Origin: a virus
IMG/VR virus record: IMGVR_UViG_3300026488_000001
Coordinates: 24,756 to 88,755 of that record
DNA: 64,000 nucleotides
Reading direction: 5' to 3' (one strand)
Position numbers and translations under genes: made by a program
In this document: in pieces, positions 11,535 to 28,558 of the stretch
How the letters are laid out: each line of letters starts with the position of its first letter
Numbering within the stretch: position 1 is the first letter of the stretch
Notes under the pieces: model-generated
What the model was told of the DNA's origin: nothing
Seen by the model: the letters and a program-made list of their open reading frames with translations, nothing else
Database searches by the model: none

Positions 11535-11546
11535 AAAGAGGTAACT

Positions 11547-12026: not shown

Positions 12027-12055
12027 TATATTAATAAACAAAATCCATTTATTAA

Positions 12056-12137: not shown

Positions 12138-12161
12138 TAACAATCTAAAAAGAGTTCAATA

Positions 12162-12566
12162 ATGCTAAACCAACTAATCAATAAACTAAAAACCTTACCT
12201 CCTAAAGAGAAGTCTATATTAAAGAGATTAATTGAAAAGTTCCAAAATGACCCCCAATCCTTACTCCAATTGTATGCTGAACTTGAAGGTTATAAAGAAG
12301 TACCAGTAGATATAATAACATTTATAGAACACCCTAAATATTTAGGCCTTTCTTTAGGGGGTAAGATATACCCAGTATGGAAAGAAGCTCTAAAAACAAT
12401 TTTCCCTAACCCATTCTACTCTCCTTATTATGAGTGCATCTACACTGGAGCAATAGGGGTTGGGAAATGTCTTGGAAATCAACAACTTATAGAAGTTTAT
12501 ATGAATGAAGAAGATATAAAGAAATATGGATTAGAAGAGTTCATAATAGAGGAAAGCAATGAGTAA
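12162..12566 (+). CDS. terL: terminase large subunit N-terminal fragment fused to 32-aa split-intein N part
   Basis: PVDIITFIEHPKYLG; Walker A GAIGVGK followed directly by CLGNQQLIEV... (Cys codon at 12468). Confidence 0.88.
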   Translation: MLNQLINKLKTLPPKEKSILKRLIEKFQNDPQSLLQLYAELEGYKEVPVDIITFIEHPKYLGLSLGGKIYPVWKEALKTIFPNPFYSPYYECIYTGAIGVGKCLGNQQLIEVYMNEEDIKKYGLEEFIIEESNE

Positions 12567-13533
12567 TCCCAAGATAGTAATAACAGAGTTTAGAAAACCT
12601 ATTATCTTCATTCATACTCTAGATGAGCTTCTTTTCCATCTAAAAGAAAAGACTAAACATTTTACCCACCCTGTTGTTCGTCTTACTCCTGAGATAATTG
12701 AATGGTTTAACTCACTTCAAGAACCTTTTTATGTTCCAAAAGGTAAATATGCTAAATTCCATACAGTAATATGGAAAGAGGTTTATGGTAAAGAGGAGTG
12801 GTTTAGCTCTCAAATAATAAGAGCAAATTTAAATCCATATTACTACTACATTAGGGGTTATACAGAAGATGAGGCTAAGGTTTTAATGGAGGAAATGCGT
12901 AAAAAGAATAGTGAAGGTGTTTCCAAAGCTTTCTCTTCTATGACTCCAGAAGAAAGAAAAGCTAAATTTGGTGTGTTTTCTGATGAATATCTGAAAAAGA
13001 AGTATGGTAAAGAAGAAGGTTATAAGAAGTGGAAAGAAAGGAATGAAAAGTGGGCTAAGACAATGTCCCAAAAAGAGAATGTTATCCCTTATGGTAGGAA
13101 TGATGAGTATATAGGATTTTCTAAAATATCACAACAACTGTTTGATAAGGTTGTTCAAAGGTTAGCTGAGTACTTCCCTATGGGAGTAATGGGAATTCAA
13201 TATGCTACTTTTAAAGAGGGTAAGAAAGTTCAGGCAAAACATTTTATGGAAAATGAGAAAAGATTTGGTACTAAGTTTGTAGACTTTTATGATGAAATAT
13301 CTAATGTTGTAATAGAGTTTGATGGTGCAGAATTCCACGATGATCCTGAAAGAGATTTAAAAAGATTGGAAGTAATTTATAATGCATCAAAAGCTTTTAT
13401 TCTTCGTATTCCAGAGGATTTACCAAGACGAGTAGGATTTGACAAACTTGCTAGAGTGATAGCAGACTACTTAATAAAAGTGAGAAACTATGGCTTTAAA
13501 GAAACTGAGAATTCCAATAGGGTTACTGTTTAA
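12559..13533 (+). CDS. free-standing Vsr/EDxHD-like homing endonuclease
   Basis: C-terminal VDFYD...VIEFDGAEFHD...RD; overlaps both terL halves. Confidence 0.72.
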   Translation: MSNPKIVITEFRKPIIFIHTLDELLFHLKEKTKHFTHPVVRLTPEIIEWFNSLQEPFYVPKGKYAKFHTVIWKEVYGKEEWFSSQIIRANLNPYYYYIRGYTEDEAKVLMEEMRKKNSEGVSKAFSSMTPEERKAKFGVFSDEYLKKKYGKEEGYKKWKERNEKWAKTMSQKENVIPYGRNDEYIGFSKISQQLFDKVVQRLAEYFPMGVMGIQYATFKEGKKVQAKHFMENEKRFGTKFVDFYDEISNVVIEFDGAEFHDDPERDLKRLEVIYNASKAFILRIPEDLPRRVGFDKLARVIADYLIKVRNYGFKETENSNRVTV

Positions 13534-15448
13534 AAAGTTAGGAATAGAACATAACCCTGATAAGGAAGAGCAAGTTCATAACCCTCCTTGCGATGTTTAT
13601 ATTTCTACTCCAGAAAACAACTTGGCTAAAGTAAATTTCTTTGTAACTAAAGAAACTGAAGTATGTGAATATGAATTAGAGAACGGTTCTACTCTTATAA
13701 CCTCAACTAAACATATAGTACTAGAGAATGGAAAAGAAACTTTCATAGATAAAGCTGAGTCAGTAGATAATGTAGATGGTAAGTCTTATAAGATATGTAC
13801 TAAGAGGTATAGAGGCAAAGAGGTAGCTTATGACTTAAGTATAGACTATCCTCACCTTTACATTACTCCTGATGGGTCTATTCATCATAATACTACGATA
13901 GCAAGAATTGTTTTGCTATATGATCTTTATAAACTTCTCTTATTAAGAGATCCTCACAAAAAATTTAACCTAATACCTACTGATAGAATAGTTATAGCTC
14001 TCTTCAACGCTACATTAGGACTAGCTGATCAGGTTTTATATGAACCATTTAAAAACCTAATAGCCAATTCAGAATTTTTCCAAGAACACTTAGATGCTGA
14101 AAATAAGAAAACATCAGAGATTAGGTTTGTTAACAACATAGGTATAGTAGCAGGTTCAAGATTTACTCATACCCTTGGTATGGCTGTATTTGGAGGTTTA
14201 TTAGACGAAGCTAATTTTGATGTAATATCTAATCAAGCTCAGGAAAGTTATAATGCACTTCTTAGAAGAATGGAATCAAGGTTTGCTCAGGCTGGTGGCA
14301 AACTTCCTGGACATCTTTGCCTTGTTTCTTCTGAAAAGAGTCCTACCGATTTTGTTTCTCAACACAGAGAAAAAGTAAGAGGAAAACAAGGAGTAATAAT
14401 CTTTCAATATCCTATATGGGAAGTTAAAAAACATTTAGGTATCTACTCAGGTAAAACCTTCAAAGTATTTATAGGAGATGAAACTACTGATCCATTCATA
14501 ATAGAAGATGAATCTCAACTACAATATATAGATGAAACCAAAGTAATAGATGTTCCAATAGAGTTAAAAGATAAATTTGAACTAGACTTACATAATGCTA
14601 TAAGAGACTTAGCTGGTTATTCAGTAGGTTCAACTCATAGAATTTTTAAATCTAAAAACATACTCATAAAACAAGCATCCGTTATTAACCCTGTTAACCA
14701 ACAGATAATAAGACTTTCCTTTAATGACAAATCAGATGTCTTAATTAACTACTTCAACATAAACTACCTAAAGAACCCACTCTTTAAAGAATGTCCAAGA
14801 GTTATCCATATAGACCTTTCTATAACAGGAGACAGAACAGGTATAGCTTCAGGTTACATAAAAGGTTACAAAACAATAGAAAGAGTTGATCCACTAACCT
14901 TAGAAAAACATATTTTCTCTGAACCAGAAGTAGTTATTGATTTTGTAACCTATATAGAACCTTTACCAGGAGAGAGAATTCCATTTTACAAGATAAGACA
15001 ATTCATAGTAGATTTATCAAGAATAGGTTACCCAGTAGCAATGGTAACTACTGACGGATTCCAATCTGAAGATATGAGACAACAGTTAACTCAAATGGGT
15101 TATAAAACTGCTTTACTATCAGTAGATAGAACTAAAGACCCTTACCTTTCCTTTAGAGATGCTATATATGAAGAAAGAGTTTGGATACCTAAACACGACT
15201 TACTGATTAAAGAACTATTACATGTAGAAGATATAGGTAAGAAGATAGACCATCCTCAAGAGTTTCCTGATGGTACTAAAGGTAGTAAGGATGGTGCTGA
15301 TGCAGTAGTAGGAGTTTACTGGAACTTGGTAACTAATAAAGATTTAATTAAACAATTAGCTTTCCAAAGAATTCATAAAACAGAAGTCAAAGAAGAAGAA
15401 CAAAGGCAAAGTGTAGCAAATCTTTTTTGGAAAGATCAAATAGATTAG
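13490..15448 (+). CDS. terL: 134-aa split-intein C part fused to terminase large subunit C-terminal fragment
   Basis: LITSTKH block B, YDLSID...SIHHN|TT; Walker B LLDEANF; nuclease motifs HIDLS and KDGADAV. Confidence 0.9.
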   Translation: MALKKLRIPIGLLFKKLGIEHNPDKEEQVHNPPCDVYISTPENNLAKVNFFVTKETEVCEYELENGSTLITSTKHIVLENGKETFIDKAESVDNVDGKSYKICTKRYRGKEVAYDLSIDYPHLYITPDGSIHHNTTIARIVLLYDLYKLLLLRDPHKKFNLIPTDRIVIALFNATLGLADQVLYEPFKNLIANSEFFQEHLDAENKKTSEIRFVNNIGIVAGSRFTHTLGMAVFGGLLDEANFDVISNQAQESYNALLRRMESRFAQAGGKLPGHLCLVSSEKSPTDFVSQHREKVRGKQGVIIFQYPIWEVKKHLGIYSGKTFKVFIGDETTDPFIIEDESQLQYIDETKVIDVPIELKDKFELDLHNAIRDLAGYSVGSTHRIFKSKNILIKQASVINPVNQQIIRLSFNDKSDVLINYFNINYLKNPLFKECPRVIHIDLSITGDRTGIASGYIKGYKTIERVDPLTLEKHIFSEPEVVIDFVTYIEPLPGERIPFYKIRQFIVDLSRIGYPVAMVTTDGFQSEDMRQQLTQMGYKTALLSVDRTKDPYLSFRDAIYEERVWIPKHDLLIKELLHVEDIGKKIDHPQEFPDGTKGSKDGADAVVGVYWNLVTNKDLIKQLAFQRIHKTEVKEEEQRQSVANLFWKDQID

Positions 15449-15572: not shown

Positions 15573-17048
15573 ATGATGGGATTGCTTTCAAAAATATTAA
15601 GTGGACTCGGTTTAGACTTTTATCCTGAGCTTAACGAACAAGTTAATACTACTTCTTACCAACCTAAACAAGACCAAGTTAAATTTGATAAGTCAGATTT
15701 TAGGATTGTATCAGAACTTGTATCTAAGTATCTTGAAGTAACAAAGAACTTTCAAGGATTTTACAAGGAAATAGAAAGAGTAAGGGAAACTTACATAGCA
15801 GAAGTAATACTAGATCAATTTACTTTTGATGCTTTAACTCCAGATGTTTCATCTGACAATATAATAGATATAGTTCCTAACATTGACTCTAAGGAAATAG
15901 AAAAAGGTTTAGAAGATTTCCAAGAAAAGATAAATGTAGACAGATTAGTTCAAGATATAACTCCTGATTTAATAGCTTTTGGAACATACACAGTTAAACC
16001 TGTTATTGAAGAAGGAGAAGGATTAGTAGAAATAAAGGATGAAGAATTACCTTATGAAGTAATTCCGTTCTATAAGGGAACTGAAATTGAATTTTATCTG
16101 AAACTTAATGAGAAAGGACAACCTGAATTTTATCAACCTTATGAGTATGTAACATTTTTTGTTAATGCAAGAAGAATAAGGGTAAGGATTGATAAATCCA
16201 TAATAAGAAACTTACCACAAGATAAACTTGATAAGATTCCTACTTTCCTTAAGGTAGGAACTCCTCTCTTTACAACAGGTGTTATAAAGAAGATTAAAGA
16301 ACTTGACTTACTTGAAAAGCTAATACCTGCATCTAAAATTCAAATGCTTTCTAAAGGCAATGTAGTAGGCGTATATGTTCCACCTTCAATGTCTCCAGAT
16401 GAAGCTCTAAGTTTTGCTAAGCAACTTGAAAGGAAACTCAACTCTTTAGGTATATCAGTAGATAAAGATTTAGATCAACTCTCAATAACTGAAATACTTA
16501 AAGGTGCTGGTAGAATAAAAGTAATACCTGTTACATCAGAAAAAGGTCAAGTTACTAAACTCGATTATAAACCAGAAGAACCAAATGATTTATTAAATTC
16601 TATACAAGATTTAAGACAAGTAATCCTTACTTCCGTTGGGATACCTCCTGAACTCATATTCAATACTGGTAATAATACTAAAGGAGAAACTCTTAAGAGA
16701 TATAGCAGGTATTTAAGGAAACTGAAATATATTCAAAAAGCTATTGTAGATGGATTGAGAGAATTAGTAATGTTACATCTTATCAATAAAGGTATTTCAG
16801 TTACTCCAGAAGACTTTTCAGTTAGATTTGCTAATACTCTCGTAAACATAGATGATTTAGACAAAATTGAGTTTCAAGTTACAGTCGCTCAAAACCTTTC
16901 TGATTTGAATAGATTTGTTCAAGATTTAGGACAAGATGATAATCTTTCTCAGTATGTCGATTATGAAGGTTTTGCTGAATTCTTAAACCAAGAACTTACA
17001 AAGATTGGACTCGACAAGGTGATAAAGTTACCAGGAGAAGAACAATGA
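15573..17048 (+). CDS. portal protein
   Basis: 491 aa directly after terL; DLRQVILTSVGIPPELI helix typical of portals. Confidence 0.75.
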   Translation: MMGLLSKILSGLGLDFYPELNEQVNTTSYQPKQDQVKFDKSDFRIVSELVSKYLEVTKNFQGFYKEIERVRETYIAEVILDQFTFDALTPDVSSDNIIDIVPNIDSKEIEKGLEDFQEKINVDRLVQDITPDLIAFGTYTVKPVIEEGEGLVEIKDEELPYEVIPFYKGTEIEFYLKLNEKGQPEFYQPYEYVTFFVNARRIRVRIDKSIIRNLPQDKLDKIPTFLKVGTPLFTTGVIKKIKELDLLEKLIPASKIQMLSKGNVVGVYVPPSMSPDEALSFAKQLERKLNSLGISVDKDLDQLSITEILKGAGRIKVIPVTSEKGQVTKLDYKPEEPNDLLNSIQDLRQVILTSVGIPPELIFNTGNNTKGETLKRYSRYLRKLKYIQKAIVDGLRELVMLHLINKGISVTPEDFSVRFANTLVNIDDLDKIEFQVTVAQNLSDLNRFVQDLGQDDNLSQYVDYEGFAEFLNQELTKIGLDKVIKLPGEEQ

Positions 17049-17638
17049 AACTTATAAAAGAACTTAATCAACTTTTAGAAGACCTATCAAGTTTAGGTGT
17101 TATTCCTAATAATCCATTAGCTTTAGTAACTTATCAAGATTTTGACTTTGACCTAGATGAATTAGAACAGAGATTCCAACAAAGACTTCAATCTTTAGGT
17201 TATGACGACATACAAGTTCAAATATTGAACTTTGATCCTGATACAGGTGATTTACTAATCAAGTTTATTAATCCTGAAAACCAAGAAGATGTAGAAGTGT
17301 TATTTACAGTAACAGAAGATGGAATACTCGCTGTAGTAGTAAGTGAAGACGACGAACATATTGAAGTAAACCTTTCTAACTTGAATGTTCCATTAGTAGA
17401 ATATGTTTTACAGGTTGGTATTGATTGGGACGAACCTTTAACTTGGTTAACAAAGTCAGTATTAACAGCACTCCTTGAAGCAGGTAGATTGGTAGAATCT
17501 TATTCTCCTGTCAGAGGTAAAAGAAAAGAGAAACTTCCTCTTATAAGGAAAGGGACTTCTGAACAAGCTAAAGTTAATCTAAAAAGGATTAAGGTTAAGA
17601 AATGTGTTAGAAAAGGTAAGTTAAGGAAAAGGAAGTAA
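17045..17638 (+). CDS. head-region protein with shared leader (acidic body, basic tail)
   Basis: Starts MKLIKELNQLLE. Confidence 0.65.
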   Translation: MKLIKELNQLLEDLSSLGVIPNNPLALVTYQDFDFDLDELEQRFQQRLQSLGYDDIQVQILNFDPDTGDLLIKFINPENQEDVEVLFTVTEDGILAVVVSEDDEHIEVNLSNLNVPLVEYVLQVGIDWDEPLTWLTKSVLTALLEAGRLVESYSPVRGKRKEKLPLIRKGTSEQAKVNLKRIKVKKCVRKGKLRKRK

Positions 17639-17664
17639 CTTGATTACAACAAGAGGTTACAGAT

Positions 17665-18435
17665 GTGAAATTTGTAACTGTCAAAGAAAGTGATTCAATA
17701 GAACTTATTCCTCTTGCCGATTTGCACTTAGGTTCAGAACTTACCAACCTAAGAAGAATTCATCAAATAATTGAACACATAAGAGAAAACCCAAAAGCAA
17801 GAGTAGTTATATTAGGAGACCTACTTGAATCAGCTATTATAGGAAGTAAAGGAAATCCTTATAAAGCTAAATCAATAGATGAAGAAGTAAGATTAGCAGT
17901 TTCGGTTCTTAAACCTATTAAGGATAAGATAATAGGAATAATAAGTGGAAATCATAGTAACCGTATCTCCAAAACGATAGGGCTTGATATTTTAGCTTTA
18001 CTATCAAGAAAGTTAGGAATAGATCGGTATTATTCTCCAGATTTCTTAGTTTTAAGAATTTCTCTACCTAAAACAGCTTGGTATGTAGTATTACATCACG
18101 GAGTAGGTGGAGGAAGGTTAAAAGGAGGAAAGATAAATAACTTGCACAGATTTGGTAACATTTTTCCTAATGCAGACATAATTCTAATAGGACATACTCA
18201 CGATTTCATAATGACTGTTGATAAGAAATACATAATAGACAAGAAACACAATTCAATAAAAACTCACAAAACTTTTTACATTAATGTTCCTTCTTTAGCT
18301 ATGGAATACGGTGGGTATGCTTCTTCTTATGCATATCCTCCAAGTGTAACAGGAACGATCAAGATTTATCTTCCTAATATTCCAAATTCTAAGAAAAAGA
18401 CCTTTGAACTAAAGGTTGAACACATATTTGTCTAA
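17665..18435 (+). CDS. calcineurin-like metallophosphoesterase
   Basis: DLHLG, GDLLE, GNH, HHG, GHTH. Confidence 0.88.
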   Translation: MKFVTVKESDSIELIPLADLHLGSELTNLRRIHQIIEHIRENPKARVVILGDLLESAIIGSKGNPYKAKSIDEEVRLAVSVLKPIKDKIIGIISGNHSNRISKTIGLDILALLSRKLGIDRYYSPDFLVLRISLPKTAWYVVLHHGVGGGRLKGGKINNLHRFGNIFPNADIILIGHTHDFIMTVDKKYIIDKKHNSIKTHKTFYINVPSLAMEYGGYASSYAYPPSVTGTIKIYLPNIPNSKKKTFELKVEHIFV

Positions 18436-18455
18436 AGTATTAAAGGAGGATTCCA

Positions 18456-18713
18456 ATGGTACTTAAACCAAAACAAGGAAAAGTTATTATAAACTACAAA
18501 GGTAAGCAAATAGAACTTCCCACTAAAGCAACCAAAGAAATCCTTTCTATCCCTGCTGTAAAAACCTTTCTTTCTAAAGGTATTGTCGAGCTTGTAGAAG
18601 AAAAAGAAGATAAGCAAGAACAACCTAAAGTAACCAAAGAAGAGTTTAAATCAGAAGAAAAACCTAAGCAAGAGAATAAATCAAAAAGAGGTAGATCATC
18701 AAAGAAGAAATAA
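18456..18713 (+). CDS. small Lys/Glu-rich hypothetical protein
   Basis: SD GGAGG; ORF. Confidence 0.65.
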   Translation: MVLKPKQGKVIINYKGKQIELPTKATKEILSIPAVKTFLSKGIVELVEEKEDKQEQPKVTKEEFKSEEKPKQENKSKRGRSSKKK

Positions 18714-18725
18714 GAGGATTAAACT

Positions 18726-19319
18726 ATGACTCTACAAGAACTCTTTGACTTGATTCTTATTAGAACAGGTGAATTTCTTATAGGTGCTGATAATGTAGAA
18801 CTCGATTTACCTAAATTTGAAGCTCTTGTTGATAAATCTCTTAAAACCTATTCCAAGTATAAACCTAAAAGAGAGAAACTCTTCATTAATCTTGAGAACT
18901 ACAAGTATACTTTTACAGATGAAATACCTAACTACATATCAGATGTAACACCTTGTTATTCTACTGTATTCAATCCACTATTACAGATAGCTAGTCAATC
19001 TGGTAATATTCCATTTATAGAGTGGGAGTATAGGAAACCTACTCTTTATGCTAACTTTAATGGAAAAGCTGAAGTTGAAGCTTGGTTTGATTGGGAAATC
19101 AAAACTGATGATTCGGGTAATAAGTATATAGAACTTGAAGATGAACTTTTCATTGATTTAATAACGGCAGAGTTTTTGTTAGGGTTAGCAAGAAGTAGGA
19201 GAGCTTTTTCAATTCAAGAGCTTCCTATTACAAGTGATTCAGAAATACTTGCATCTGAAGGACAAAAACTTTATGAAGATACCATTGAAACTTTAAGACA
19301 AACTTCTATTTTAATATAA
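18726..19319 (+). CDS. putative neck/head-tail adaptor protein
   Basis: Helical N-terminus and C-terminal ILASEG...E pattern reminiscent of gp13-type adaptors; position. Confidence 0.45.
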   Translation: MTLQELFDLILIRTGEFLIGADNVELDLPKFEALVDKSLKTYSKYKPKREKLFINLENYKYTFTDEIPNYISDVTPCYSTVFNPLLQIASQSGNIPFIEWEYRKPTLYANFNGKAEVEAWFDWEIKTDDSGNKYIELEDELFIDLITAEFLLGLARSRRAFSIQELPITSDSEILASEGQKLYEDTIETLRQTSILI

Positions 19320-19344
19320 TTAAATAATAAAAAGGAGGAAGATT

Positions 19345-19707
19345 ATGAATCTTATAAACGAATTAAATCAAATTTTGGAAACTATAATTAATGTTAAAAA
19401 TACTGATGGTATTAATTTAAAGAAAGGTGATAAATTTTATTACAGGAAAGATGATGTAGTTCTTACCGTACAAGAGATAAAAGATATTTCTGGGACAAAA
19501 TATGCAGTAGTTAAATCTGAAAATGGAGAAGTTTTGAAACTCCCAGTAGCTATGTTTAATTCAAGTTATGATTTTCTTGTTCCTTATGAACAATGGAAAA
19601 AAGAGTGGGAAAGAAAGGTTAGAGCTTTTGTAAATTCTATGAAAGGTAAAATGAATGATAATCAACTTAAGGAGTTAGAAAGGCAATTATTAAGTAGAAT
19701 AAAATAA
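19345..19707 (+). CDS. leader-bearing putative internal head protein
   Basis: Starts MNLINELNQILE; LKKGDKF SH3/KOW-like strands. Confidence 0.6.
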   Translation: MNLINELNQILETIINVKNTDGINLKKGDKFYYRKDDVVLTVQEIKDISGTKYAVVKSENGEVLKLPVAMFNSSYDFLVPYEQWKKEWERKVRAFVNSMKGKMNDNQLKELERQLLSRIK

Positions 19708-19799
19708 GTATGGGTGAAATTATAAATTTATTGGGTCTCTTATTTTAATTAATTCGAAGGTTTTGTATTTTTGTTGTACTTACTATAAGGAGTAAGGTA

Positions 19800-20321
19800 A
19801 TGAGATTGATAGATGAACTTGTAGAGTTGTTTCGTTTATACGAAGAGTTAGATGATAAGAAATTGGATAAAGCAGTTAAGTGGTTTATAAGGGAAATTCT
19901 TTTCTACTTGATACCTGATTGGAAAGAAAAAGACCCTAACTTAGCTATATTCCCGAAAAAAGGAAGTAAGTATTACGAAGCTTATGTTACTATCAAGTTT
20001 ACTAAAACAAGAGGTATTTGGTTAGAATTCTCAAGTAATCCATCTATTCAATATAGAATTCTTAAAATTTGGGTAACAGCAATTGATATGGGAGATAAAA
20101 TAGACTTTTCTATTTCAGTCTTTCCAGTTGAAAGAAACATACAGAAGTATATTGATGTAAATATACCAAGAAAACTATCTTTTGACATCTATGTACCAAA
20201 AGAAGAACTTGAAAAAGGAGTTTCTTCCCTTAAGTATATTGAGCCAGTTTTAAAGGAAGTAAGAGAAACAATAAAGGAGATATATGAAGGTTTGGAAAAG
20301 TTAGTTAAAAGGAAAAAGTAA
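19800..20321 (+). CDS. leader-bearing putative internal head protein
   Basis: Starts MRLIDELVELFRLYEE; RBS and leader DNA nearly identical to those at 28064. Confidence 0.6.
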   Translation: MRLIDELVELFRLYEELDDKKLDKAVKWFIREILFYLIPDWKEKDPNLAIFPKKGSKYYEAYVTIKFTKTRGIWLEFSSNPSIQYRILKIWVTAIDMGDKIDFSISVFPVERNIQKYIDVNIPRKLSFDIYVPKEELEKGVSSLKYIEPVLKEVRETIKEIYEGLEKLVKRKK

Positions 20322-20896
20322 TGGGACTTATACAAGAGGTTAATCAATTGTTGGAGAAAGTTAATAAACCAGATCCAAGACAGATAGTAGAAGTTCCGAA
20401 AAGGTTAAGAAGAAAGAATAGAGTAACATTAAAACAGATTTATTTAAATTTCCCTTACTCCGTTTATAAGTACGATCCTATTCCTCCTCAACCTGTAAAG
20501 ATTAGAAGAATAGAACTAACTGAAGATGAATTAGTAATGACTGTTCACGCTTATGTTAAATCTGTTTCAAGACCAGGAAAGTATCATAGTTGTGTTTTAC
20601 AGTTGGCAAGACCGAATACTAATATAGATTGGAATTGGGATTTACCAGTAGCAGTAAGATGTTCTTGTGAGTCTTTTAGATATTTCCTAGCTTATGCTCT
20701 TTACTCTCATGGAGCTTTATTTGGTAGACCATCTCTCTGGAATAAAGTACCTGCTAAAATACGAAATCCTATGAACATCCCTCAAGTATGTTCCCATTTG
20801 TGCTTATTAACTGAATATTTAATCAAACATAAAATAATAAAAGGTAAGGTAATTTGGAATACCCTAAAATATAGGGATGGTGGTAGGAAAAAGTAA
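20321..20896 (+). CDS. leader-bearing SWIM-type zinc-finger protein
   Basis: MGLIQEVNQLLE; CSC...CSH SWIM ligand pattern. Confidence 0.65.
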   Translation: MGLIQEVNQLLEKVNKPDPRQIVEVPKRLRRKNRVTLKQIYLNFPYSVYKYDPIPPQPVKIRRIELTEDELVMTVHAYVKSVSRPGKYHSCVLQLARPNTNIDWNWDLPVAVRCSCESFRYFLAYALYSHGALFGRPSLWNKVPAKIRNPMNIPQVCSHLCLLTEYLIKHKIIKGKVIWNTLKYRDGGRKK

Positions 20897-22299
20897 TGTT
20901 TAAAAACAAACTTTATCAAGATAAAGATTGGCTTTACCACCAATATTGGGAATTAGGTAAATCTACCAGACAGATAGCGAAAGAATTTGGTTATGGTATT
21001 AATACAATAAGAAGGTGGATGGACAAATTTGGAATTCCAAGAAGAAGTGTTGATGAGGGAATTCAGCAAAGATTTAAAGCACCTTACAGGAATAGAGATT
21101 GGTTGTATAATGAGTTAATTATAAAAGGCAAATCAAGAATTCAAGTAGCAAGAGAGTTAGGAGTTAATAGAGAGACTATTGATAAATGGGCAAAGAAGTT
21201 TGAAATAGGTTATCCAGAGAAACTTTACCAGAATAAAGAATGGTTAGAAGAACAATATGTGAAGTTAGGAAAATCAACTATTCAGATAGCAGAAGAATTA
21301 GGAGTTTCTGAAACTGTTATATTAAAGTGGTTAAAGAGATTTGAAATACCGATAAGAAGATGGCATAAGAAAGGAAAGTATACTAACAAAGAATGGCTTT
21401 ATAATGAGTATTATGTTAAAGGAAAATCTATAAAACAAATTGCTGAAGAATGTAATGTAAAACCCTCTTCAGTTAGATATTGGTTTGATAGGTTTGGTTT
21501 TGTATCAAGAGAAAAGTTTAAACCCGTTATTGGAAAAGAGTGGTTATACCAAGAATATGTAATTAGAAAGAAGTCAATGAAAGAAATTGCAAGAGAGTTA
21601 GGAATTCATTATAAAATTGTTTCTAATTTATTAAAACAGTACGATATTCCTATAAGGAATGTAAATGAAGCCGTTTCTTCTGTTTCCAACTTTTATCACA
21701 AACTTTCAGATTATTTTAGACAAGTTCTAGATGGGTCTTTAACTAAACCAAAATCTTTGAACTCTAATTCTTGTTATCAACATACTGATAAACACAAGAA
21801 TTATATAGAATGGCTAAGGCAACAGTTTATTGATGAAAGTTTGGAGTGTGGTAAAATTTATGAAAAGGAATATAAAAAATTAAATGCTAAAGCATATTGT
21901 TTCTCTACAAGAAGATATCCTTGCTTAACAGAACAATATTATAGATGGTATTCAGATAGTAAAAAGATAATACCAGATGATTTAAAACTTACTCCAACAG
22001 TTGTTCTTCATTGGTATATTGGTGATGGGAGTCTAATTAAACCATCAAAAGGTAAACCTTTCATCCATTTCGCTACCAACTGTTTTACTTTTGAAGAGGT
22101 TAACTTTTTGGTAGATCAACTTAATGAACTTGGACTAAAAGCATATTTAAGAACTGGAACTGAATACAGAACAAAAAGGAAATTTCCTTATATAGTTTTA
22201 TCAGTAAAATCAACTTTGGATTTCTTTGATTTTATAGGTTCTTGTCCAGAACCAATTAAACAAGACTATAATTATAAATGGGAATTAATTAACCTATAA
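20896..22299 (+). CDS. LAGLIDADG homing-endonuclease-like protein with five tandem HTH repeats
   Basis: Five KxWLY..Y...GKS..QIA.E.G repeats, then LDGSL and HWYIGDGS. Confidence 0.78.
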   Translation: MFKNKLYQDKDWLYHQYWELGKSTRQIAKEFGYGINTIRRWMDKFGIPRRSVDEGIQQRFKAPYRNRDWLYNELIIKGKSRIQVARELGVNRETIDKWAKKFEIGYPEKLYQNKEWLEEQYVKLGKSTIQIAEELGVSETVILKWLKRFEIPIRRWHKKGKYTNKEWLYNEYYVKGKSIKQIAEECNVKPSSVRYWFDRFGFVSREKFKPVIGKEWLYQEYVIRKKSMKEIARELGIHYKIVSNLLKQYDIPIRNVNEAVSSVSNFYHKLSDYFRQVLDGSLTKPKSLNSNSCYQHTDKHKNYIEWLRQQFIDESLECGKIYEKEYKKLNAKAYCFSTRRYPCLTEQYYRWYSDSKKIIPDDLKLTPTVVLHWYIGDGSLIKPSKGKPFIHFATNCFTFEEVNFLVDQLNELGLKAYLRTGTEYRTKRKFPYIVLSVKSTLDFFDFIGSCPEPIKQDYNYKWELINL

Positions 22300-22334
22300 A
22301 TTAAATTTAGAAGAATACACTAAAGGGCAATCCA

Positions 22335-23270
22335 ATGATAAAGTTTAGAGACCCAAACGACAAAATATTATTCCTTTCTGAAGCAGGCTTGTTAAACCAA
22401 TATGAACCTTTTGATGATGTAGAAAAACTCTCACAGGAAGCTATCGAAGAAATCTGGCAAGGTATTATTAAACGTCGTAAACCTTTAAAGAAGAGATTAA
22501 AAGACAGGAAGCGTTCTAAGATTCAAAAACAGAATTGGAAGAAATACAAAACAAAATATCTTTTGGCTTTAAGAAAGTGGCATCGTTCTGTAAGTGGTAA
22601 AAGGTTTCATAGAGCTTTAGGTAGGTTTTTAGCTTTAAGACTAAACAGAGAATCTTATAACCTTGATGTTAATGAAAGGTTTGATTTTCTCAAGTTACTA
22701 TCCAGTCTTAAAACTCATTGGTATATAGAGGGAGTTTATTACAAACCACTCTTAGAAGAAGTAGAATATGAACTCTTTACTGAAGAAGTATTACCACTAA
22801 TAGAAGAGATTGAAAAGAAAGTTTTAATTGAGAATAAACTTGATAAAGACGATATTGAGTTTCTATTTGGTATCTTTTACGAATCTAAAGAAAGATTTGT
22901 ATTAGCGGTTCAAGAAATTGTAAACAGAATAAAACAAGGTAGGTCACTTTCCAAGAGTTGTATAAGTGATGTTATCAAGTATGTAACTGATAACAAAGAA
23001 AAACTAAGAGAAGCAATTATAGGTTGGTTAGAGGAAGAAACTTTTGGAGGTTATCATTCAGTATTGCTTTCTCAAAGTTTAAGGAAAGTAATTTATGATC
23101 CAAATGAGAAATATTTTGTTAAGAAACAAGGTGACACATTTATCTATAAGCAAGGAGATTCAGAAGTAGTTTTTAAACTAAAATACTTACTTCCTGTAAA
23201 ACACCTTTTAGCTTACTTTGAAGGTGAAATCAATAATCTTTCTGATAAAGTTTATGAAATAGTTGATTAA
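22335..23270 (+). CDS. hypothetical head-region protein with basic segment
   Basis: ORF upstream of the protease; Lys/Arg-rich residues ~45-105. Confidence 0.6.
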   Translation: MIKFRDPNDKILFLSEAGLLNQYEPFDDVEKLSQEAIEEIWQGIIKRRKPLKKRLKDRKRSKIQKQNWKKYKTKYLLALRKWHRSVSGKRFHRALGRFLALRLNRESYNLDVNERFDFLKLLSSLKTHWYIEGVYYKPLLEEVEYELFTEEVLPLIEEIEKKVLIENKLDKDDIEFLFGIFYESKERFVLAVQEIVNRIKQGRSLSKSCISDVIKYVTDNKEKLREAIIGWLEEETFGGYHSVLLSQSLRKVIYDPNEKYFVKKQGDTFIYKQGDSEVVFKLKYLLPVKHLLAYFEGEINNLSDKVYEIVD

Positions 23271-23280
23271 GAGGTTTAAA

Positions 23281-24666
23281 ATGAAAGAACAAGTAATTGA
23301 TCTTATAGAACCACAAATTCAATTTACAGTAGAAGAATCAAGTGAAGTAGATGGTATCCACATCTTAGGTAAGGTAAAAGGTCAATTCTTTGTTCCTGAC
23401 GGTTACTCCAGAAATAATCGTTTTTATCCTCGTAAACTTTGGGAAAAGGTAATATCCAATCCTGATATTCAAAAGAGACTTAAAGAAAGACGAATGTTTG
23501 GAACTATCGGTCACGATACTCCTATAAATGATAATACAATAGCAGAAGGTAAAATTTCCCACATAGTAACTAACCTTTATATCGATGAACAAGGTAGAGG
23601 TATAGGAGAAGCTCTTATCCTTAATACCCCTGCTGGTAGAGTTCTTAATACTTTGTTAAGGGCAGGAGCTAAACTTTATGTTTCATCTAGGGCTTTTGGA
23701 GAATATGAAGGTAAAGATCCTACTGGTAAAGTTCCAGCTTTAAATCCTGACAAGTATGAACTAATAGGTTTTGATTTTGTCTATGATCCGGGATTTCTTC
23801 AAGCCAATCCTAAACTTGTAGAATCTATCAGAAAAGATTTGAAGCAATGTATAGGAGACATATGTTCTTTTGTTGAAAATCAAGATAAATCCAATGAAGT
23901 AAAGGAGGATAATAGTATGGCTATGGAACAAGTTTTGGAACAACTTACCAAAGAAAAAGTAGAACTTGAAAAAGAACTTGATAAGGTTCTTAAAGAGAAT
24001 GAAGAACTCAAGAAACAAATAGAAGAGTTCAAAAAGAAAGAGGAAGAGTGGAAAACTGTTTCTGAATCTCTTTCTAAAGTAGAAGAGGAACTTAAATCAG
24101 CTAAAGAAGAACTTGCTAAATATGAGAAGCTCGGAAAACCTGAAGAAATTGAAGAAACTATTAAGAAAGCTAAAGAGCTTCTCGAACAATACAAGGAAAT
24201 AGGTTCTCCTGAAGAAATTAAGGAAAGTATTGAAGATGCTAAAAAAGTTCTTCAAGAATATCTTGAAATTGGAAAACCTGAAGAAATAAGAGAAACACTT
24301 GAGAATGCTAAAAATATTCTTAAGAAGGTTGCAGTTTTTAAAGAGGAAGTAGGAGAACTTGATGAAGTAAAAGAGTTTCTTGAGTCTATGAAAGATGTAT
24401 TTGCTAAGATGGTAGAAGAAAAAAGACAAGCTAAGGTTGAAGAACTCTCTAAAGAATTTGGTGTAGAAAAAGAAGTTGTAGAGAGACTTGCTTCCAAAAT
24501 GGAATTTGATGAAGTAAAAGAAGTCCTTTCTAAAATGGTAGAATCTGCTAAGTATGTAAACAAGTATAAAGTATCTTCTAAAGTTGAAGAAGATAAGAAA
24601 GACAATTCAACTTCTAAATTCCTCAAACCAAGAACTATAAGACTTGCTGAATCCTTCCTAAAGTAA
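23281..24666 (+). CDS. prohead protease (T4 gp21-like) fused to coiled-coil scaffold
   Basis: SRNNRFYP, GTIGH, VSSRAFG, FDFVYDPG; E/K-rich C-terminal half; SD GAGGT before ATG at 23281. Confidence 0.88.
   Translation: MKEQVIDLIEPQIQFTVEESSEVDGIHILGKVKGQFFVPDGYSRNNRFYPRKLWEKVISNPDIQKRLKERRMFGTIGHDTPINDNTIAEGKISHIVTNLYIDEQGRGIGEALILNTPAGRVLNTLLRAGAKLYVSSRAFGEYEGKDPTGKVPALNPDKYELIGFDFVYDPGFLQANPKLVESIRKDLKQCIGDICSFVENQDKSNEVKEDNSMAMEQVLEQLTKEKVELEKELDKVLKENEELKKQIEEFKKKEEEWKTVSESLSKVEEELKSAKEELAKYEKLGKPEEIEETIKKAKELLEQYKEIGSPEEIKESIEDAKKVLQEYLEIGKPEEIRETLENAKNILKKVAVFKEEVGELDEVKEFLESMKDVFAKMVEEKRQAKVEELSKEFGVEKEVVERLASKMEFDEVKEVLSKMVESAKYVNKYKVSSKVEEDKKDNSTSKFLKPRTIRLAESFLK
23917..24666 (+). 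CDS. nested in-frame scaffold protein (249 aa)
   Basis: Internal AAGGAGG SD and in-frame ATG at the protease/coiled-coil boundary. Confidence 0.7.
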   Translation: MAMEQVLEQLTKEKVELEKELDKVLKENEELKKQIEEFKKKEEEWKTVSESLSKVEEELKSAKEELAKYEKLGKPEEIEETIKKAKELLEQYKEIGSPEEIKESIEDAKKVLQEYLEIGKPEEIRETLENAKNILKKVAVFKEEVGELDEVKEFLESMKDVFAKMVEEKRQAKVEELSKEFGVEKEVVERLASKMEFDEVKEVLSKMVESAKYVNKYKVSSKVEEDKKDNSTSKFLKPRTIRLAESFLK

Positions 24667-24676
24667 GGAGTAAAAT

Positions 24677-24910
24677 ATGATTAAGGAACTTAATAAGTTA
24701 CTTGAGGAATTTCAAAGAAAAGATGAATATGCTATGAGAGTTACTGAAATTCCCAAGTTCTTTGAAAAGATTAAGAAACAACTTGATAAGGTAACTGATT
24801 TACCTGAAGACTTGTTTAAAATTGATATGATTCAGAAAGATATAGATAAAGTGAAACAAGAACTTGATAAGATTTGGCAGAAGTTTAAATCAGGCAAGTA
24901 TGAAAGATAA
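24677..24910 (+). CDS. small leader-bearing head protein
   Basis: Starts MIKELNKLLE. Confidence 0.6.
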   Translation: MIKELNKLLEEFQRKDEYAMRVTEIPKFFEKIKKQLDKVTDLPEDLFKIDMIQKDIDKVKQELDKIWQKFKSGKYER

Positions 24911-24932
24911 ATCAATACTATTTTGTTTTTCC

Positions 24933-24960
24933 TAACTAACCTGCACTATCAGGTTAGTTA
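24933..24960 (+). promoter_or_regulatory. 11-bp stem-loop upstream of the major capsid gene
   Basis: TAACTAACCTG-CACTAT-CAGGTTAGTTA. Confidence 0.5.
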
Positions 24961-25024
24961 ACCTAGAAATCTCAATAAAATCTAAATCTACAACATTATT
25001 AAGAAATTAAGGAGGTAGTTAATA

Positions 25025-26410
25025 ATGAGCGAACTCGTTATTGAAAAGAAACTCAGAGAAGTAGAATACCAAGCTGAAGATTATCTCAAAAGGTATCGTG
25101 AACAAGTAGAAACTCTTGAATCTGCAACTTTCCTTGGAAAAGTAAGGGGAGTTCAGGCTTGGGACGTAGTTCAGCTCGGTAAGCAACTTGAAAAGTGGGA
25201 AATGCTTGAATCTATGGTTAAAGAAGATGGTGGACTTGCATCTCTTGGTGCACTTCCCAAAGTAGCTTTTGATGTTATCACAGTTGCTTACGGAAACTCT
25301 GTAATTCCTTTCATAGCTTCTGTTCAAAACATTGAAGAAGAAAGAGGAAATGTTTACTTCAAAGTAATTAAAAGACAAGATACAGGAAATACTATTATTG
25401 ATCCTAGAACTGGAGCTGTTCTTCCAAGTGGACTTGCTTCCAATGTAGTTTCTGATAAAGTAGTTGCTACTGGAGATGGTTCTACAACTACTTTCAATGT
25501 TACTCTTGATTCTATCCCTGTAAGACCTGAAACTTTTGAAGTTAAAGCAGGTTCTGCTTATGGTAAGGACGATGGAAAAGGAACAATTCTTGGTGTAGGT
25601 GTATGGGGAACGATTGACTACTCCACAGGAGCTGTGGAACTCAACTTTGCTTCTGCACCTGCTTCTGGTGAAGAAATTAAGGTTGGATATCAAGTAGATA
25701 TAGAAGGTGCTAATGATCTTCCTTCTATTGGTTCTGTATTTGAATCTATACCTGTTACAGCAAGGATTTATGCTCTTAAGGGAGTAGTAGGACTTCTCCA
25801 ATCTTATGCCCTCAGGCAAAGGTTTGGAATTGTAGCTGAGGATGAACTTGCTAAAGACCTTGTAGTTGCCATTAACAATGAGATTGGTGGTGACCTTATC
25901 AGGAAGATGAATGCTAATCCTGCTGGTGGGACAATTACTTGGGATAAAACTCCTCCTTCTGGAGTAAGCTACTTTGAACATAAGCAAACAATTAAAGACA
26001 GCCTTGCTGATCTTGAAGGAAAGATTGTTAGCAATGCAGGTAGGGGAGTTATTAATGTTATCATAGCAGGTGCTAAAGTTGCTGCTATTCTTTCTACACT
26101 ACCTGGATTTGAAAAGGTAGCTGATGGTAAAGCTATGGGTGCTCATGTATTTGGAACTCTTGATGGTGTAACTGTTATCAGGGTTAATGATGCTAATGCT
26201 CTTCCTGGTAATGTAGCACTCGGTATTTACAACCCTGATAATCCGTTTGAGGGTGCTGCTGTTTATGCTCCTTATATGCCTCTTACAACAACTGAGCTTA
26301 TTCCACTTTCACCTAATCCATTGACAAATCAGAAAGCTGCTGCTGTATGGGCAGGTGTAGAAGTTCTTGTTCCTCAGTTTGTAGGTAAACTTAATGTTCA
26401 AAATGCTTAA
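25025..26410 (+). CDS. major capsid protein (T4 gp23-like) with a beta-rich insertion
   Basis: IASVQ...GNVYF, VTARIYALK, AINNEI and YAPYMPL correspond to gp23 blocks; strong SD. Confidence 0.88.
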   Translation: MSELVIEKKLREVEYQAEDYLKRYREQVETLESATFLGKVRGVQAWDVVQLGKQLEKWEMLESMVKEDGGLASLGALPKVAFDVITVAYGNSVIPFIASVQNIEEERGNVYFKVIKRQDTGNTIIDPRTGAVLPSGLASNVVSDKVVATGDGSTTTFNVTLDSIPVRPETFEVKAGSAYGKDDGKGTILGVGVWGTIDYSTGAVELNFASAPASGEEIKVGYQVDIEGANDLPSIGSVFESIPVTARIYALKGVVGLLQSYALRQRFGIVAEDELAKDLVVAINNEIGGDLIRKMNANPAGGTITWDKTPPSGVSYFEHKQTIKDSLADLEGKIVSNAGRGVINVIIAGAKVAAILSTLPGFEKVADGKAMGAHVFGTLDGVTVIRVNDANALPGNVALGIYNPDNPFEGAAVYAPYMPLTTTELIPLSPNPLTNQKAAAVWAGVEVLVPQFVGKLNVQNA

Positions 26411-26413
26411 TAT

Positions 26414-26497
26414 AACATAGTAAAGTATTTGCTATGTTCGGTAGGAGTCCTCTGGCCAAGGTAATAACCTTGTTATGCTGGGGGACTCCTACTTTTA
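26414..26497 (+). terminator. tandem hairpins/terminator after the capsid gene
   Basis: Hairpin 26414-26438, then a long bulged stem GTAGGAGTCC...GGACTCCTAC followed by TTTT. Confidence 0.65.
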
Positions 26498-26525
26498 ATA
26501 AGAAAACAATAGGAGGATTAACATA

Positions 26526-27215
26526 ATGAGTCTTATACAAGAGATAGTTCAACTTGCAGAAGAAGCAGGAATAGAACTTCCAACTAAAACTTGCATATGT
26601 CCTAATTGCGGTTATGAAATGGAAACTCCTATGGGGATTCCTTGTTCTAACTATGATTGTCCTAAATGTGGAACTCCTATGACAAGGAAAATTGGGGAAG
26701 GTTATTCTCAATCTGTAAGAGATAAGTTTATTGAGTGGGTTAAGAAATATTTTAGTAATCCGAATGGATATTATTCTTTGACTAATTATGTTTTAGATAT
26801 TTTAAGTAAGTGTAAAGATGAAGTAGACTCTCTTCTTGACGATTTTGGGACATCTGAAAAAGAATGGGAAGATAATTGGAAAGAAATAGCTGATGCATTA
26901 ATGAATTATGAATTTGATCCTTATTCAGACCAATGGACAGACTGTGTTCATAAGTTAGCTAAAAAGTATGGTTATTCGGAATCTAAGAATGAATCTAAAA
27001 CAGTAAAAGCAAAACTTGTATTTAACGGTTCAGAAGAACCTACATTTTCTCTTATAGATGAACAAGGTAATGAAATTTTTAAAGGAATAGGAAAAGTAGA
27101 TACTATTGCCAAACTTCTCCAACTTAATTCCAATCCTACTGCTGAAGATGCTGTTGTTTGTGCTATGGAAAAAGGAGAGTGTGAAGTTGAAGTAGAATTG
27201 GAGAAAGAGGGATAG
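26526..27215 (+). CDS. leader-bearing multidomain protein with zinc ribbon
   Basis: MSLIQEIVQLAE; CICPNCG...PC...CPKCG. Confidence 0.65.
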   Translation: MSLIQEIVQLAEEAGIELPTKTCICPNCGYEMETPMGIPCSNYDCPKCGTPMTRKIGEGYSQSVRDKFIEWVKKYFSNPNGYYSLTNYVLDILSKCKDEVDSLLDDFGTSEKEWEDNWKEIADALMNYEFDPYSDQWTDCVHKLAKKYGYSESKNESKTVKAKLVFNGSEEPTFSLIDEQGNEIFKGIGKVDTIAKLLQLNSNPTAEDAVVCAMEKGECEVEVELEKEG

Positions 27216-27217
27216 GG

Positions 27218-27418
27218 ATGGTTACTATTGATTATGAACTGTGTATTAATTGTTTTCTTTGTATGAAAGAATGTCCAATGTTTTGTTTTTCTGAAGTAGA
27301 TGGTAAGTTAGTTTTAACTGAATCAGGTAAGAATACTTGTATTGGATGTGGAAATTGTATTCAAAGCTGTCCTACTCTTGCTTTAGATTGGGACTATAAT
27401 CATATCAGGTATTCCTGA
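27218..27418 (+). CDS. 2x[4Fe-4S] ferredoxin
   Basis: Two CxxCxxCxxxCP motifs (CINCFLCMKECP; CIGCGNCIQSCP). Confidence 0.88.
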   Translation: MVTIDYELCINCFLCMKECPMFCFSEVDGKLVLTESGKNTCIGCGNCIQSCPTLALDWDYNHIRYS

Positions 27419-27435
27419 TAACAAAGAGGAACAAA

Positions 27436-27735
27436 ATGGCTTTGATTGATAGTTTAAAGAAAACACTTGAACAATTGGTAATAAATAATGATCCTTACTC
27501 CTTTGATAGAGCTTTGTTAGATGCTCTTCCTCCATATAAAATAACCAAAGATATTCCCCCTCTACCTAATTCAAAAAACATAAAACTTGCTCTAAGAATC
27601 AAAGGAGGATTTCTGGCTTTAACTAAAGACAATGAACTTATTATTTATCACCAGAATGGTTCTTCAGGTTCAGTTAAGATTATTTTTGATAGAAAGGATA
27701 TTAAGTATTTAAAGAAGTTTTTAAAGGAGGTTTAG
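27436..27735 (+). CDS. leader-bearing putative internal head protein
   Basis: Starts MALIDSLKKTLE. Confidence 0.6.
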   Translation: MALIDSLKKTLEQLVINNDPYSFDRALLDALPPYKITKDIPPLPNSKNIKLALRIKGGFLALTKDNELIIYHQNGSSGSVKIIFDRKDIKYLKKFLKEV

Positions 27736-27738
27736 ATA

Positions 27739-28059
27739 ATGGCTCTTATAGATGAGCTTAAACTTACAATAGAGAGTTGTAAATCCAAGAAAGAGTTTAA
27801 AGAAGCTCTTACTAAAGAACTTTATGATAAGATTGGAATAATACTTAGGGAATCAGCTTACTTTGATTTTGATCCTATTGATGAAGAACAAGGTACATAT
27901 ATGATTTCTATTAATGTAGCAGGCAAAGAAATAATTCAGATTAATACTAAGAAAGATGGAGAAAATATAGTTTATGATTCTTATGAGATTGATGAAGGTG
28001 GTCTTAAAGCAATGATTGAATTTATTGAGAACAAAGCTAAAGAACTTTCTAAGGAGTAA
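27739..28059 (+). CDS. leader-bearing putative internal head protein
   Basis: Starts MALIDELKLTIE. Confidence 0.6.
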   Translation: MALIDELKLTIESCKSKKEFKEALTKELYDKIGIILRESAYFDFDPIDEEQGTYMISINVAGKEIIQINTKKDGENIVYDSYEIDEGGLKAMIEFIENKAKELSKE

Positions 28060-28063
28060 GGTT

Positions 28064-28558
28064 ATGAGATTGATAGATGAACTTTATTCTCTTCTCTATC
28101 AACTTGATGAGGAACAATGGATAGACAAAGTTAAGCCCAAGTGGCATCCTCCTGAAGGGTTATTTACCAAAGACCCTGAAACAATAGCTAAAACAGTTGC
28201 AAAAGCATCTAAAGATTATAAACAAGCAGTAGCAAGAGTTAATTTCTTCTATAATAGGTATGGTTGTTCTGGTGATAGAAAAGGAGATGAGATTTGTAAG
28301 AAAAGGGAAAAGGTTTTACAACTTCTTAGAAAACTTTTTAAGGTAAAAGAAGAGGAAGCAACTAAAGTAATCATTACTTATGATGGAGAAACTTTTGATG
28401 TAGTTTATCCGAGTGGAAATGTAGAATCTTTCCAAGATGAAGTTTCTTTCCTTCAGTTTATTAGGCAAAAGAATATTAAAGGTAAAAACGGTGTAACAGA
28501 CCAGCAACTTGTAGATTGGGTTAAGGAATCTGGTTATATAGAAGCATTTTTGGGTTAG
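28064..28558 (+). CDS. leader-bearing protein with a DUF3175-like domain
   Basis: SD AAGGAG before ATG at 28064; MRLIDEL...; GLFTKDPETIA...NFFYNRYG resembles DUF3175 (from memory). Confidence 0.6.
   Translation: MRLIDELYSLLYQLDEEQWIDKVKPKWHPPEGLFTKDPETIAKTVAKASKDYKQAVARVNFFYNRYGCSGDRKGDEICKKREKVLQLLRKLFKVKEEEATKVIITYDGETFDVVYPSGNVESFQDEVSFLQFIRQKNIKGKNGVTDQQLVDWVKESGYIEAFLG

Follow-up and report, generated by a model that had tools for sequence, protein, structure and literature searches.

Why do nine otherwise unrelated proteins of an uncultured phage begin with a very similar string of about a dozen residues? The window analyzed here, a stretch of 64,000 nucleotides covering bases 24,756-88,755 of IMG/VR record IMGVR_UViG_3300026488_000001, belongs to a complete phage genome of 88,755 bp with direct terminal repeats and 31% G+C. 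Nine open reading frames (ORFs; named here by their start positions in the window) that are scattered through its head module, all between the portal and the neck genes, share a short amphipathic N-terminal leader. An earlier note on this DNA had viewed the leader as a distinct targeting code that loads effectors, possibly directed against host defenses, into the capsid. Our analysis instead suggests, by analogy, that it is most likely a propeptide for capsid targeting and processing of the type known from T4, with the T4 layout kept, two residues added, and the whole representing one dialect of a leader found in a large uncultured clade.

Nine unrelated proteins share an N-terminal leader

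The starts and N-termini proposed in the earlier note were confirmed for all nine ORFs, including the last one, for which the ribosome-binding site (RBS) and the orthologs agree on ATG 28064 and not on TTG 28016 upstream:

17045..17638, plus strand: leader protein 1, 197 residues; leader MKLIKELNQLLE; acidic alpha/beta domain and very basic Lys/Arg tail
19345..19707, plus strand: leader protein 2, 120 residues; leader MNLINELNQILE; accessory, absent from three close relatives
19800..20321, plus strand: leader protein 3, 173 residues; long-form leader MRLIDELVELFRLYE|E
20321..20896, plus strand: leader protein 4, 191 residues; leader MGLIQEVNQLLE; SWIM-like C-terminal region
24677..24910, plus strand: leader protein 5, 77 residues; shortened leader MIKELNKLLE; helical; accessory
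26526..27215, plus strand: leader protein 6, 229 residues; leader MSLIQEIVQLAE; two CxxC pairs (Zn-ribbon-like); acidic
27436..27735, plus strand: leader protein 7, 99 residues; leader MALIDSLKKTLE; accessory
27739..28059, plus strand: leader protein 8, 106 residues; leader MALIDELKLTIE; conserved in a clade of four genomes
28064..28558, plus strand: leader protein 9, 164 residues; long-form leader MRLIDELYSLLYQLDE|E; DUF3175-like helical domain and C-terminal alpha/beta domain

All nine N-termini fit M-x-L-I-x-E-[LIV]-x-x-[LIT]-[LIA]-E, the pattern of a 12-residue amphipathic helix that presents hydrophobic residues at positions 3, 4, 7, 10, and 11 on one face. Position 4 is I or V and position 7 is L, V, or I in eight of the nine leaders, the register of 24677 being two residues shorter, and among the hydrophobic residues I4 and L7 are conserved best. 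Seven leaders comprise 12 residues, or 10 in the case of 24677, and end in LLE, ILE, LAE, TLE, or TIE, while those of 19800 and 28064 are of a long form (15-16 residues) with one extra helical turn that ends in L-Y-E and L-D-E. The endings (LLE, ILE, LLE, LLE, LAE, TLE, TIE, LYE, and LDE) are thus all of the type [LIT]-x-E, and the terminal Glu described earlier holds throughout, but in the two long forms it lies one helical turn past position 12.

The recurrence of this pattern far exceeds chance. Across the whole genome, M-x-L-I-x-[ES]-[LIV] is found at nine ORF N-termini against 0.07 expected from composition, eight of the nine lying between 17045 and 28558, and the same core motif without the Met occurs inside proteins at chance level (6 times versus 8 expected). 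A de novo test, in which residues 2-12 of all ORF pairs were scored with BLOSUM62 against the 99.9th percentile of a shuffled null, likewise yielded 18 pairs over the threshold where 0.38 were expected. Behind the leader the proteins are unrelated, as had been claimed: pairwise BLASTP of the mature parts found no significant similarity (best E = 0.013 in a 10-sequence database). AlphaFold2 models of 28064 (mean pLDDT 89.7; leader helix 3-17) and 17045 (model mdc35f131525b; mean pLDDT 79.6; leader helix 2-16) show the leader as a helix on its own, separated by a low-confidence linker from a well-folded domain.

At the DNA level, one pair of genes stands apart. A stretch of 35 nucleotides comprising the RBS and the leader codons is 97% identical between 19800 (19786..19820, plus strand) and 28064 (28050..28084, plus strand), and the RBS TAAGGAGTAA is common to three genes. 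Otherwise the leader codons differ synonymously (CTT/TTG/TTA, GAA/GAG, ATA/ATT) at the conserved Leu, Ile, and Glu, which argues that selection acts on the leader peptide, and apart from the one near-identical pair the 20 nucleotides upstream of the leader genes are only 25-70% identical. The view of the leader as a portable cassette thus applies literally to a single pair, whereas the broader evidence for exchange lies in concerted evolution at the protein level (see below).

The claim that the leader is confined to the head block stands for all nine ORFs, but a similar start, MELIRELLDLLDQLEE, which would be the tenth, heads a 148-residue protein that is encoded outside the window, in the early region and on the minus strand (L001:8328-8774). 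It is one of a family of paralogs about 150 residues long, three of which, in the relative G001, have leader-like starts (MKLVEELKSLLDLLYE, MKRLVEELMELIQE), and the membership of this family in the tag system is uncertain. Three further candidates in the window were rejected: 18726 (MTLQELFDLILIRTGEF) is a conserved structural protein with a family-specific N-terminus that is also found in leaderless phages, 32379 is a false positive of the pair test, and 53354 (MELIDFLDKAINE..) is a membrane protein amid membrane-protein genes that resembles the leader only superficially. The latter (53354-53758, 134 residues with a transmembrane segment) is part of a run of membrane and signal-peptide ORFs (52659-55991) that is possibly a lysis cassette.

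A protease-scaffold fusion and candidate processing sites

Two genes of the same head module encode a prohead protease and the major capsid protein:

23263..24666, plus strand: prohead protease (S77, gp21-like) fused to a coiled-coil scaffold (PF03420, 35.4 bits versus a cut-off of 27; phrog_207, E = 3e-32)
25025..26410, plus strand: major capsid protein, gp23-like (PF07068, E = 1.9e-14)

A profile of the N-terminal protease domain matches the structure of T4 gp21 (5JBL, E = 7e-4), and His84, Ser141, and Asp171 align with the positions of the T4 triad and are invariant in 54 homologs. The gp21-like protease that the earlier note had recognized is therefore encoded with an intact His-Ser-Asp triad. 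The scaffold listed next to it (23917..24666) corresponds to the C-terminal part of the protease ORF, in the same frame, and is not a separate gene, but it does have a strong RBS of its own (AAAGGAGG, 8 nucleotides upstream of the in-frame ATG 23917), and a nested start at this position probably yields a separate scaffold protein.

Motifs like the leader ending recur in both proteins. In the protease, LIE-16 and, four residues before the C-terminus, RLAE-463 are candidate self-cleavage sites. The capsid protein has ..QVETLE|S conserved some 32 residues from its start (TLE|S is kept in the relatives and SLE|S is found in the Rhizobium phage), up to which its N-terminus is a probable propeptide. 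Within the scaffold part, three tandem 69-nt repeats (24100-24320) encode a helix-turn unit ..Y-x-x-L-G-x-P-E-E-I.., and this unit is conserved in the consensus of 54 homologs. These helix-turn repeats are a candidate docking site for the leader; co-folding of the protease-scaffold alignment with residues 1-40 of the 17045 family gave ipSAE interface scores of 0.00-0.01 in a run without controls, which speaks neither for nor against binding.

Leaders follow their genome across an uncultured clade

Three IMG/VR contigs encode capsid proteins that are 79-87% identical to the one in the window, and a metagenome scan with the capsid protein gave the same three. Their leaders (e.g., MKLIQQLNQMLE, MNLSQEVLRLLE, MAKIHEIISLLE, MALVHELKMLLE, and MRLVDKVKTLLQKLE) drift at positions 2, 5, 6, 8, and 9, with the terminal Glu kept in all orthologs. 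A hidden Markov model of the leader, the check that the earlier note had proposed, was searched against all ORFs of these relatives; 13 of its 14 matches with 5 bits or more lie at a Met start. The families of 17045, 20321, 26526, 27739, and 28064 are present in all four genomes, 19345, 24677, and 27436 were found in the present genome only, and 19800 also occurs in two of the three relatives, where its ortholog has a short-form leader (MGRLIDNLNLLLE|E). The relatives in turn carry further tagged genes, such as one for a 242-residue protein with weak zincin-peptidase matches. When the exact leader was back-translated and scanned against 2.9 million IMG/VR contigs, 27 single matches came up, which is chance level and mostly off ORF starts, and no further contig had a cluster, so that the exact dialect of this leader is confined to the four genomes.

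The protease-scaffold fusion itself is far more widespread, with more than 150 homologs at 34-47% identity. We repeated the pair test on the loci around approximately 50 such homologs in IMG/VR, and 13 of these loci showed a large excess of similar N-termini that form clusters of 3-33 ORFs. The largest clusters comprise 33 of 49 ORFs (at a locus of a 237-kb contig), 18 of 34, and 13 of 26, and only one pair of homologous mature parts was found across the clusters of all 13 loci. Together, the 140 leader ORFs have the consensus M-[SNT]-K-A-x-[EKD]-[LIFV]-[LI]-x-[LMF]-[LIFV]-E-E, most commonly in the form M-S-K-A-x-E-L-L-x-L-L-E; position 7 is hydrophobic in 93% of them, and hydrophobic-x-Glu with the Glu at positions 10-14 is present in 66%, compared to 17% among the remaining ORFs of these loci. 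Leader ORFs are also short (median 106 residues versus 185 for the other ORFs of these loci). Two loci (L073 and L099) use a dialect close to that of the window, and the cultured Vibrio phage 150E35-1 has a mild version with ..LLEICE on three or four head-module ORFs. The tagged proteins of the relatives include AAA ATPases, SprT-like zincins, a DnaJ-domain protein, and a zeta-toxin-like kinase. One leader-bearing AAA ATPase of 948 residues (L098 4005-6851) is split by an intein with Hint and homing-endonuclease domains.

Comparison of homologous proteins between lineages then indicates that the tag belongs to the genome and not to the protein family. Homologs of 17045 in five other lineages bear the leader of their own lineage (e.g., MSKAQKLLEQF, MGKFKDLLEQI, or MSRAKSLLNTF), and the homologs of 26526 and 28064 at locus L080 likewise bear the leader of that lineage. 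Expressed as similarity scores, the leader of 17045 reaches only 0-11 against its own homologs, compared to a mean of 26 against unrelated tagged proteins of the same genome, and over all leaders the mean is 15.9 within a locus versus 7.2 between loci. The untagged conserved head families (18726 and 22335), by contrast, retain family-specific N-termini across lineages. These sequence comparisons indicate that leaders evolve in concert within genomes, and since the tag tracks the genome and not the protein family, one shared reader per genome is implied, for which the prohead core and the protease are the obvious candidates by analogy. By such comparisons the leader is also a separable module, given a homolog of 20321 in Vibrio phage Va2 without any leader and DUF3175-like homologs of 28064 with and without N-terminal extensions.

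What is new here is thus a leader system that is widespread, expandable, and evolving in concert across an uncultured clade. Its fullest interpretation, to which we assign slightly less than an even chance, is a clade-wide address-tag system, co-evolving within genomes, of uncultured myoviruses with an S77 protease fused to a Y-x-x-L-G-x-P-E-E-I-repeat scaffold. Each lineage would homogenize its own leader over unrelated genes, from 3 to more than 30 of them, some of which encode enzymes such as AAA ATPases, zincin peptidases, and zeta-toxin-like kinases. In that case, the set of proteins that these phages package, and may inject, could be read from sequence, and leader and scaffold would form a matched, portable loading module.

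A probable T4-type targeting and processing propeptide

The capsid-targeting sequence (CTS) of T4 is MKTYQEFIAE (PMC8442874). Suppressor analysis with the internal protein IPIII assigned targeting mainly to residues 4 and 7 and processing to residues 8 and 10, and Asp at position 10 blocked cutting but not targeting (PMC9026906). The internal proteins of T-even phages form a very diverse group with only the CTS in common (PMC3012670). The leaders described here resemble this system in being short N-terminal sequences on otherwise unrelated proteins whose set varies between close relatives, in sharing M1, a hydrophobic residue at position 4, E6, a hydrophobic residue at position 7, and a terminal hydrophobic-x-E with the CTS, and in occurring together with a gp21-family serine protease and a gp23-family capsid protein. 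T4 gp21 itself carries LIE-9 (PMC9026906), which resembles LIE-16 of the present protease. Unlike the CTS of 10 residues, however, the present leader has 12 (or 15-16), with M-x-L-I-x-E-L-x-x-L-L-E in place of MKTYQEFIAE, and both are too short for a statistical test of homology. In addition, the nine tagged genes lie inside the head block whereas the ip loci of T4 are dispersed, the protease is fused to the scaffold whereas T4 has separate genes 21 and 22, and the phage is far from T4 and known here from its sequence alone.

A second precedent is provided by the giant phages phiKZ, 201phi2-1, and SPN3US, whose head and ejection proteins have propeptides that are cut by gp21-related proteases after (A/S/G)-x-Glu (PMC10052503, PMC5694885). 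There, too, the N-terminal propeptides of many head proteins are removed after Glu by a diverged gp21 homolog, and the paralogs gp53 and gp54 have an identical N-terminus. But these propeptides mostly span 111-254 residues, with only two of around 20, instead of forming one short tag on unrelated proteins, and Ala is preferred at P3 in place of the Leu or Ile of the present leader. By its layout, the leader is a variant of the known T4-type design and not the distinct code that had been proposed.

On this T4 model, the hydrophobic face of the leader (positions 3, 4, 7, 10, and 11) would dock each new protein onto a prohead core built from the protease-fused scaffold domain, and the S77 serine protease would cut after the terminal hydrophobic-x-Glu once the gp23-like shell has closed. 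The leader peptide would then exit and the mature proteins would remain in the head with the DNA, from where some of them would be ejected into the host. Core binding, cleavage, virion retention, and ejection of the tagged proteins are all steps that we infer by analogy.

Several observations weigh against a T4-type propeptide. The leaders of 27436 and 27739 have Thr instead of Leu or Ile at P3, a leader-like N-terminus also heads the early-region paralogous family, and some cargo of the relatives, such as an AAA ATPase or a DnaJ domain, would be an unusual content for a capsid. Among DUF3175-like proteins the Glu sits at a fixed distance of about two residues before a conserved Trp and could belong to the domain instead of marking a cut site. 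The closest cultured relatives with the same type of protease (Rhizobium phage RHph_TM30, E. coli phage IME392, and Vibrio phage Va2) have no leader clusters, which means that the protease does not require leaders. Finally, packaging and cleavage are predictions from sequence and analogy for the present phage and for all of its relatives.

Of the alternatives, the one that survives best keeps the docking but drops the cut: the leader could be an assembly helix that brings the proteins to the scaffold, the portal, or one another and that is left uncut or is cut elsewhere. Such a role would suit its heptad-like hydrophobic pattern and the scaffold coiled coil with the conserved Y-x-x-L-G-x-P-E-E-I repeats, it is in line with the T4 finding that Asp at P1 permits targeting without cleavage (PMC9026906), and it would accommodate a Glu that falls exactly at position 12 in only about 44% of the leaders of the wider clade. 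We nevertheless consider it unlikely, since no feature of the leader is better conserved between orthologs and lineages than the terminal hydrophobic-x-Glu, which fits the specificity of the protease family, and since the capsid protein and the protease bear the same motif.

The shared N-terminus might also be a tag read by different machinery, for instance a chaperone, a membrane or export factor, or a modifying enzyme of the kind that acts on ribosomally synthesized and post-translationally modified peptides (RiPPs) or of the radical S-adenosylmethionine (SAM) type. A 4Fe-4S ferredoxin gene (27218-27418) inside the cluster and the DnaJ domain in the cargo of one relative could be taken as hints in this direction. 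All leader genes of the window are located between the portal and the neck genes, though, the leader is found together with the S77 protease-scaffold family, whose cut motif forms its end, and no signal-peptide-like hydrophobic stretch was found in the leaders, which together make this very improbable. A radical-SAM enzyme was rejected separately, with no PF04055 match in the complete 88.7-kb genome in a search that matched 14 of 14 control genomes.

Least likely of all, and hardly tenable, is that the similarity is a functionless by-product of exchanged DNA cassettes (RBS plus first codons, spread by recombination or gene conversion for good late translation initiation or for promoting module shuffling), as mobile regulatory cassettes reportedly shuffle genes in T4-type phages, because outside the one pair with 97% identity over 35 nucleotides and the RBS TAAGGAGTAA shared by three genes, the leaders vary synonymously with the amino acid pattern kept next to poorly conserved upstream DNA, and this pattern persists, terminal Glu included, over lineages whose proteases are only 35-47% identical.

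If the tag does work as in T4, a short removable cargo leader would not be peculiar to T-even phages but a general strategy, open to expansion, of a large and for the most part uncultured myovirus group. Proteins inside the virion could then be predicted by their leader from sequence alone, and the accessory tagged genes with their fast turnover would be candidates for injected factors of host takeover or counter-defense. The T4 CTS is already in use for loading foreign proteins into phage heads, and the clade would offer natural matched pairs of tag and scaffold for the same purpose. Besides, the concerted evolution of the tag provides a handle on which component of the prohead reads it.

The tagged proteins

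Without their leaders, the nine proteins would have 8-25 kDa, and six are basic (pI 8.7-10) and three acidic. Pfam and PHROG searches with all nine gave nothing above threshold except for a match of 20321 to phrog_18980, a family with no function assigned in PHROG. PDB sequence searches and Foldseek searches with both AlphaFold2 models (17045 and 28064) gave no significant match, fold matches in BFVD were uncharacterized phage proteins only, and a search of the ESM Atlas with 17045 gave no usable match.

The family of 17045 is the most widely conserved of the tagged families, within the clade and beyond, and its acidic domain and long Lys/Arg tail suggest a DNA-associated internal protein. In the alignment of 20321, a variable leader precedes a highly conserved mature part, and its C-terminal region is homologous (hhalign 96.9%) to a leaderless head-module protein of Vibrio phage Va2 that is annotated as "SWIM-type zinc finger protein". 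The SWIM zinc finger (PF04434) itself was not detected on 20321, and the annotated Vibrio phage homologs score 16-19 bits against a cut-off of 19.6; of the motif C-x-C-x(n)-C-x-H, the family keeps C-x-C and the His invariant with a variable third Cys. The domain assignments of the earlier note thus fared unevenly: SWIM-like can be retained by homology only, DUF3175-like holds for 28064 through intermediate homologs, and the Zn ribbon and SH3-like calls correspond to sub-threshold matches only (CpcD and SH3_13 for 19345).

For 28064, no direct Pfam match was obtained, but phmmer found 313 representative homologs at E<=1e-3, and among 10 scanned homologs PF11373 (DUF3175) was above the cut-off in four and just below in two, so that homology through intermediates is supported at the sequence level. 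Of 89 DUF3175-like members in which the domain starts close to the N-terminus, 11 lack an extension; the other 78 are extended by 8 or more residues, and 64 of these extensions end in hydrophobic-x-Glu, usually two residues before the conserved Trp. Such domains are common in small metagenomic proteins with short amphipathic starts that end in hydrophobic-x-Glu (P0126-P0275), and one of them, P0269, starts with MKLIKELTQLNE, almost identical to a leader of the window.

The idea that the nine are effectors with a possible anti-defense role did not find support, as none of them matches a defense-related family above threshold. All four genomes of the clade keep five of the nine, and the homolog of 20321 in Vibrio phages is leaderless, which makes several of the nine more likely to be prohead-core or internal structural proteins. 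The five clade-conserved proteins are probably core or internal head components, while the four accessory ones may be likened to T-even internal proteins, an analogy that extends to their turnover only.

Layout of the head module and neighboring genes

Besides the genes listed above, the following landmarks delimit the head module:

13490-15448: large terminase
15573..17048, plus strand: portal protein (34% identity, E = 5e-86, to the annotated portal of Rhizobium phage RHph_TM30)
from 30176: tail sheath

Pfam and PHROG searches with the portal protein returned no match. The closest matches to the capsid protein are from Rhizobium phages of the Kleczkowskaviridae, with 49% identity.

Several genes without a leader are interspersed in this region. 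Just after 17045 lies a gene for a calcineurin-like metallophosphoesterase (17665-18435; phrog_7339, annotated as "DNA repair exonuclease"), the counterpart of which sits upstream of the portal in the relatives L003 and L005. A LAGLIDADG homing endonuclease with four or five helix-turn-helix repeats is encoded in the middle of the head module (20896-22299), and versions of differing lengths are found at the matching place in L003 (4617-5543) and L005 (6326-7585). The 4Fe-4S dicluster ferredoxin among the tagged genes has 66 residues and is conserved in the same two relatives (L003 11880-12071 and L005 13181-13372). In L005, moreover, the major capsid gene is broken after about residue 319 by approximately 1.3 kb with an ORF of 307 residues (10957-12244) before the capsid coding sequence resumes at 12244, an interruption that could be an intron or the insertion of a homing element.

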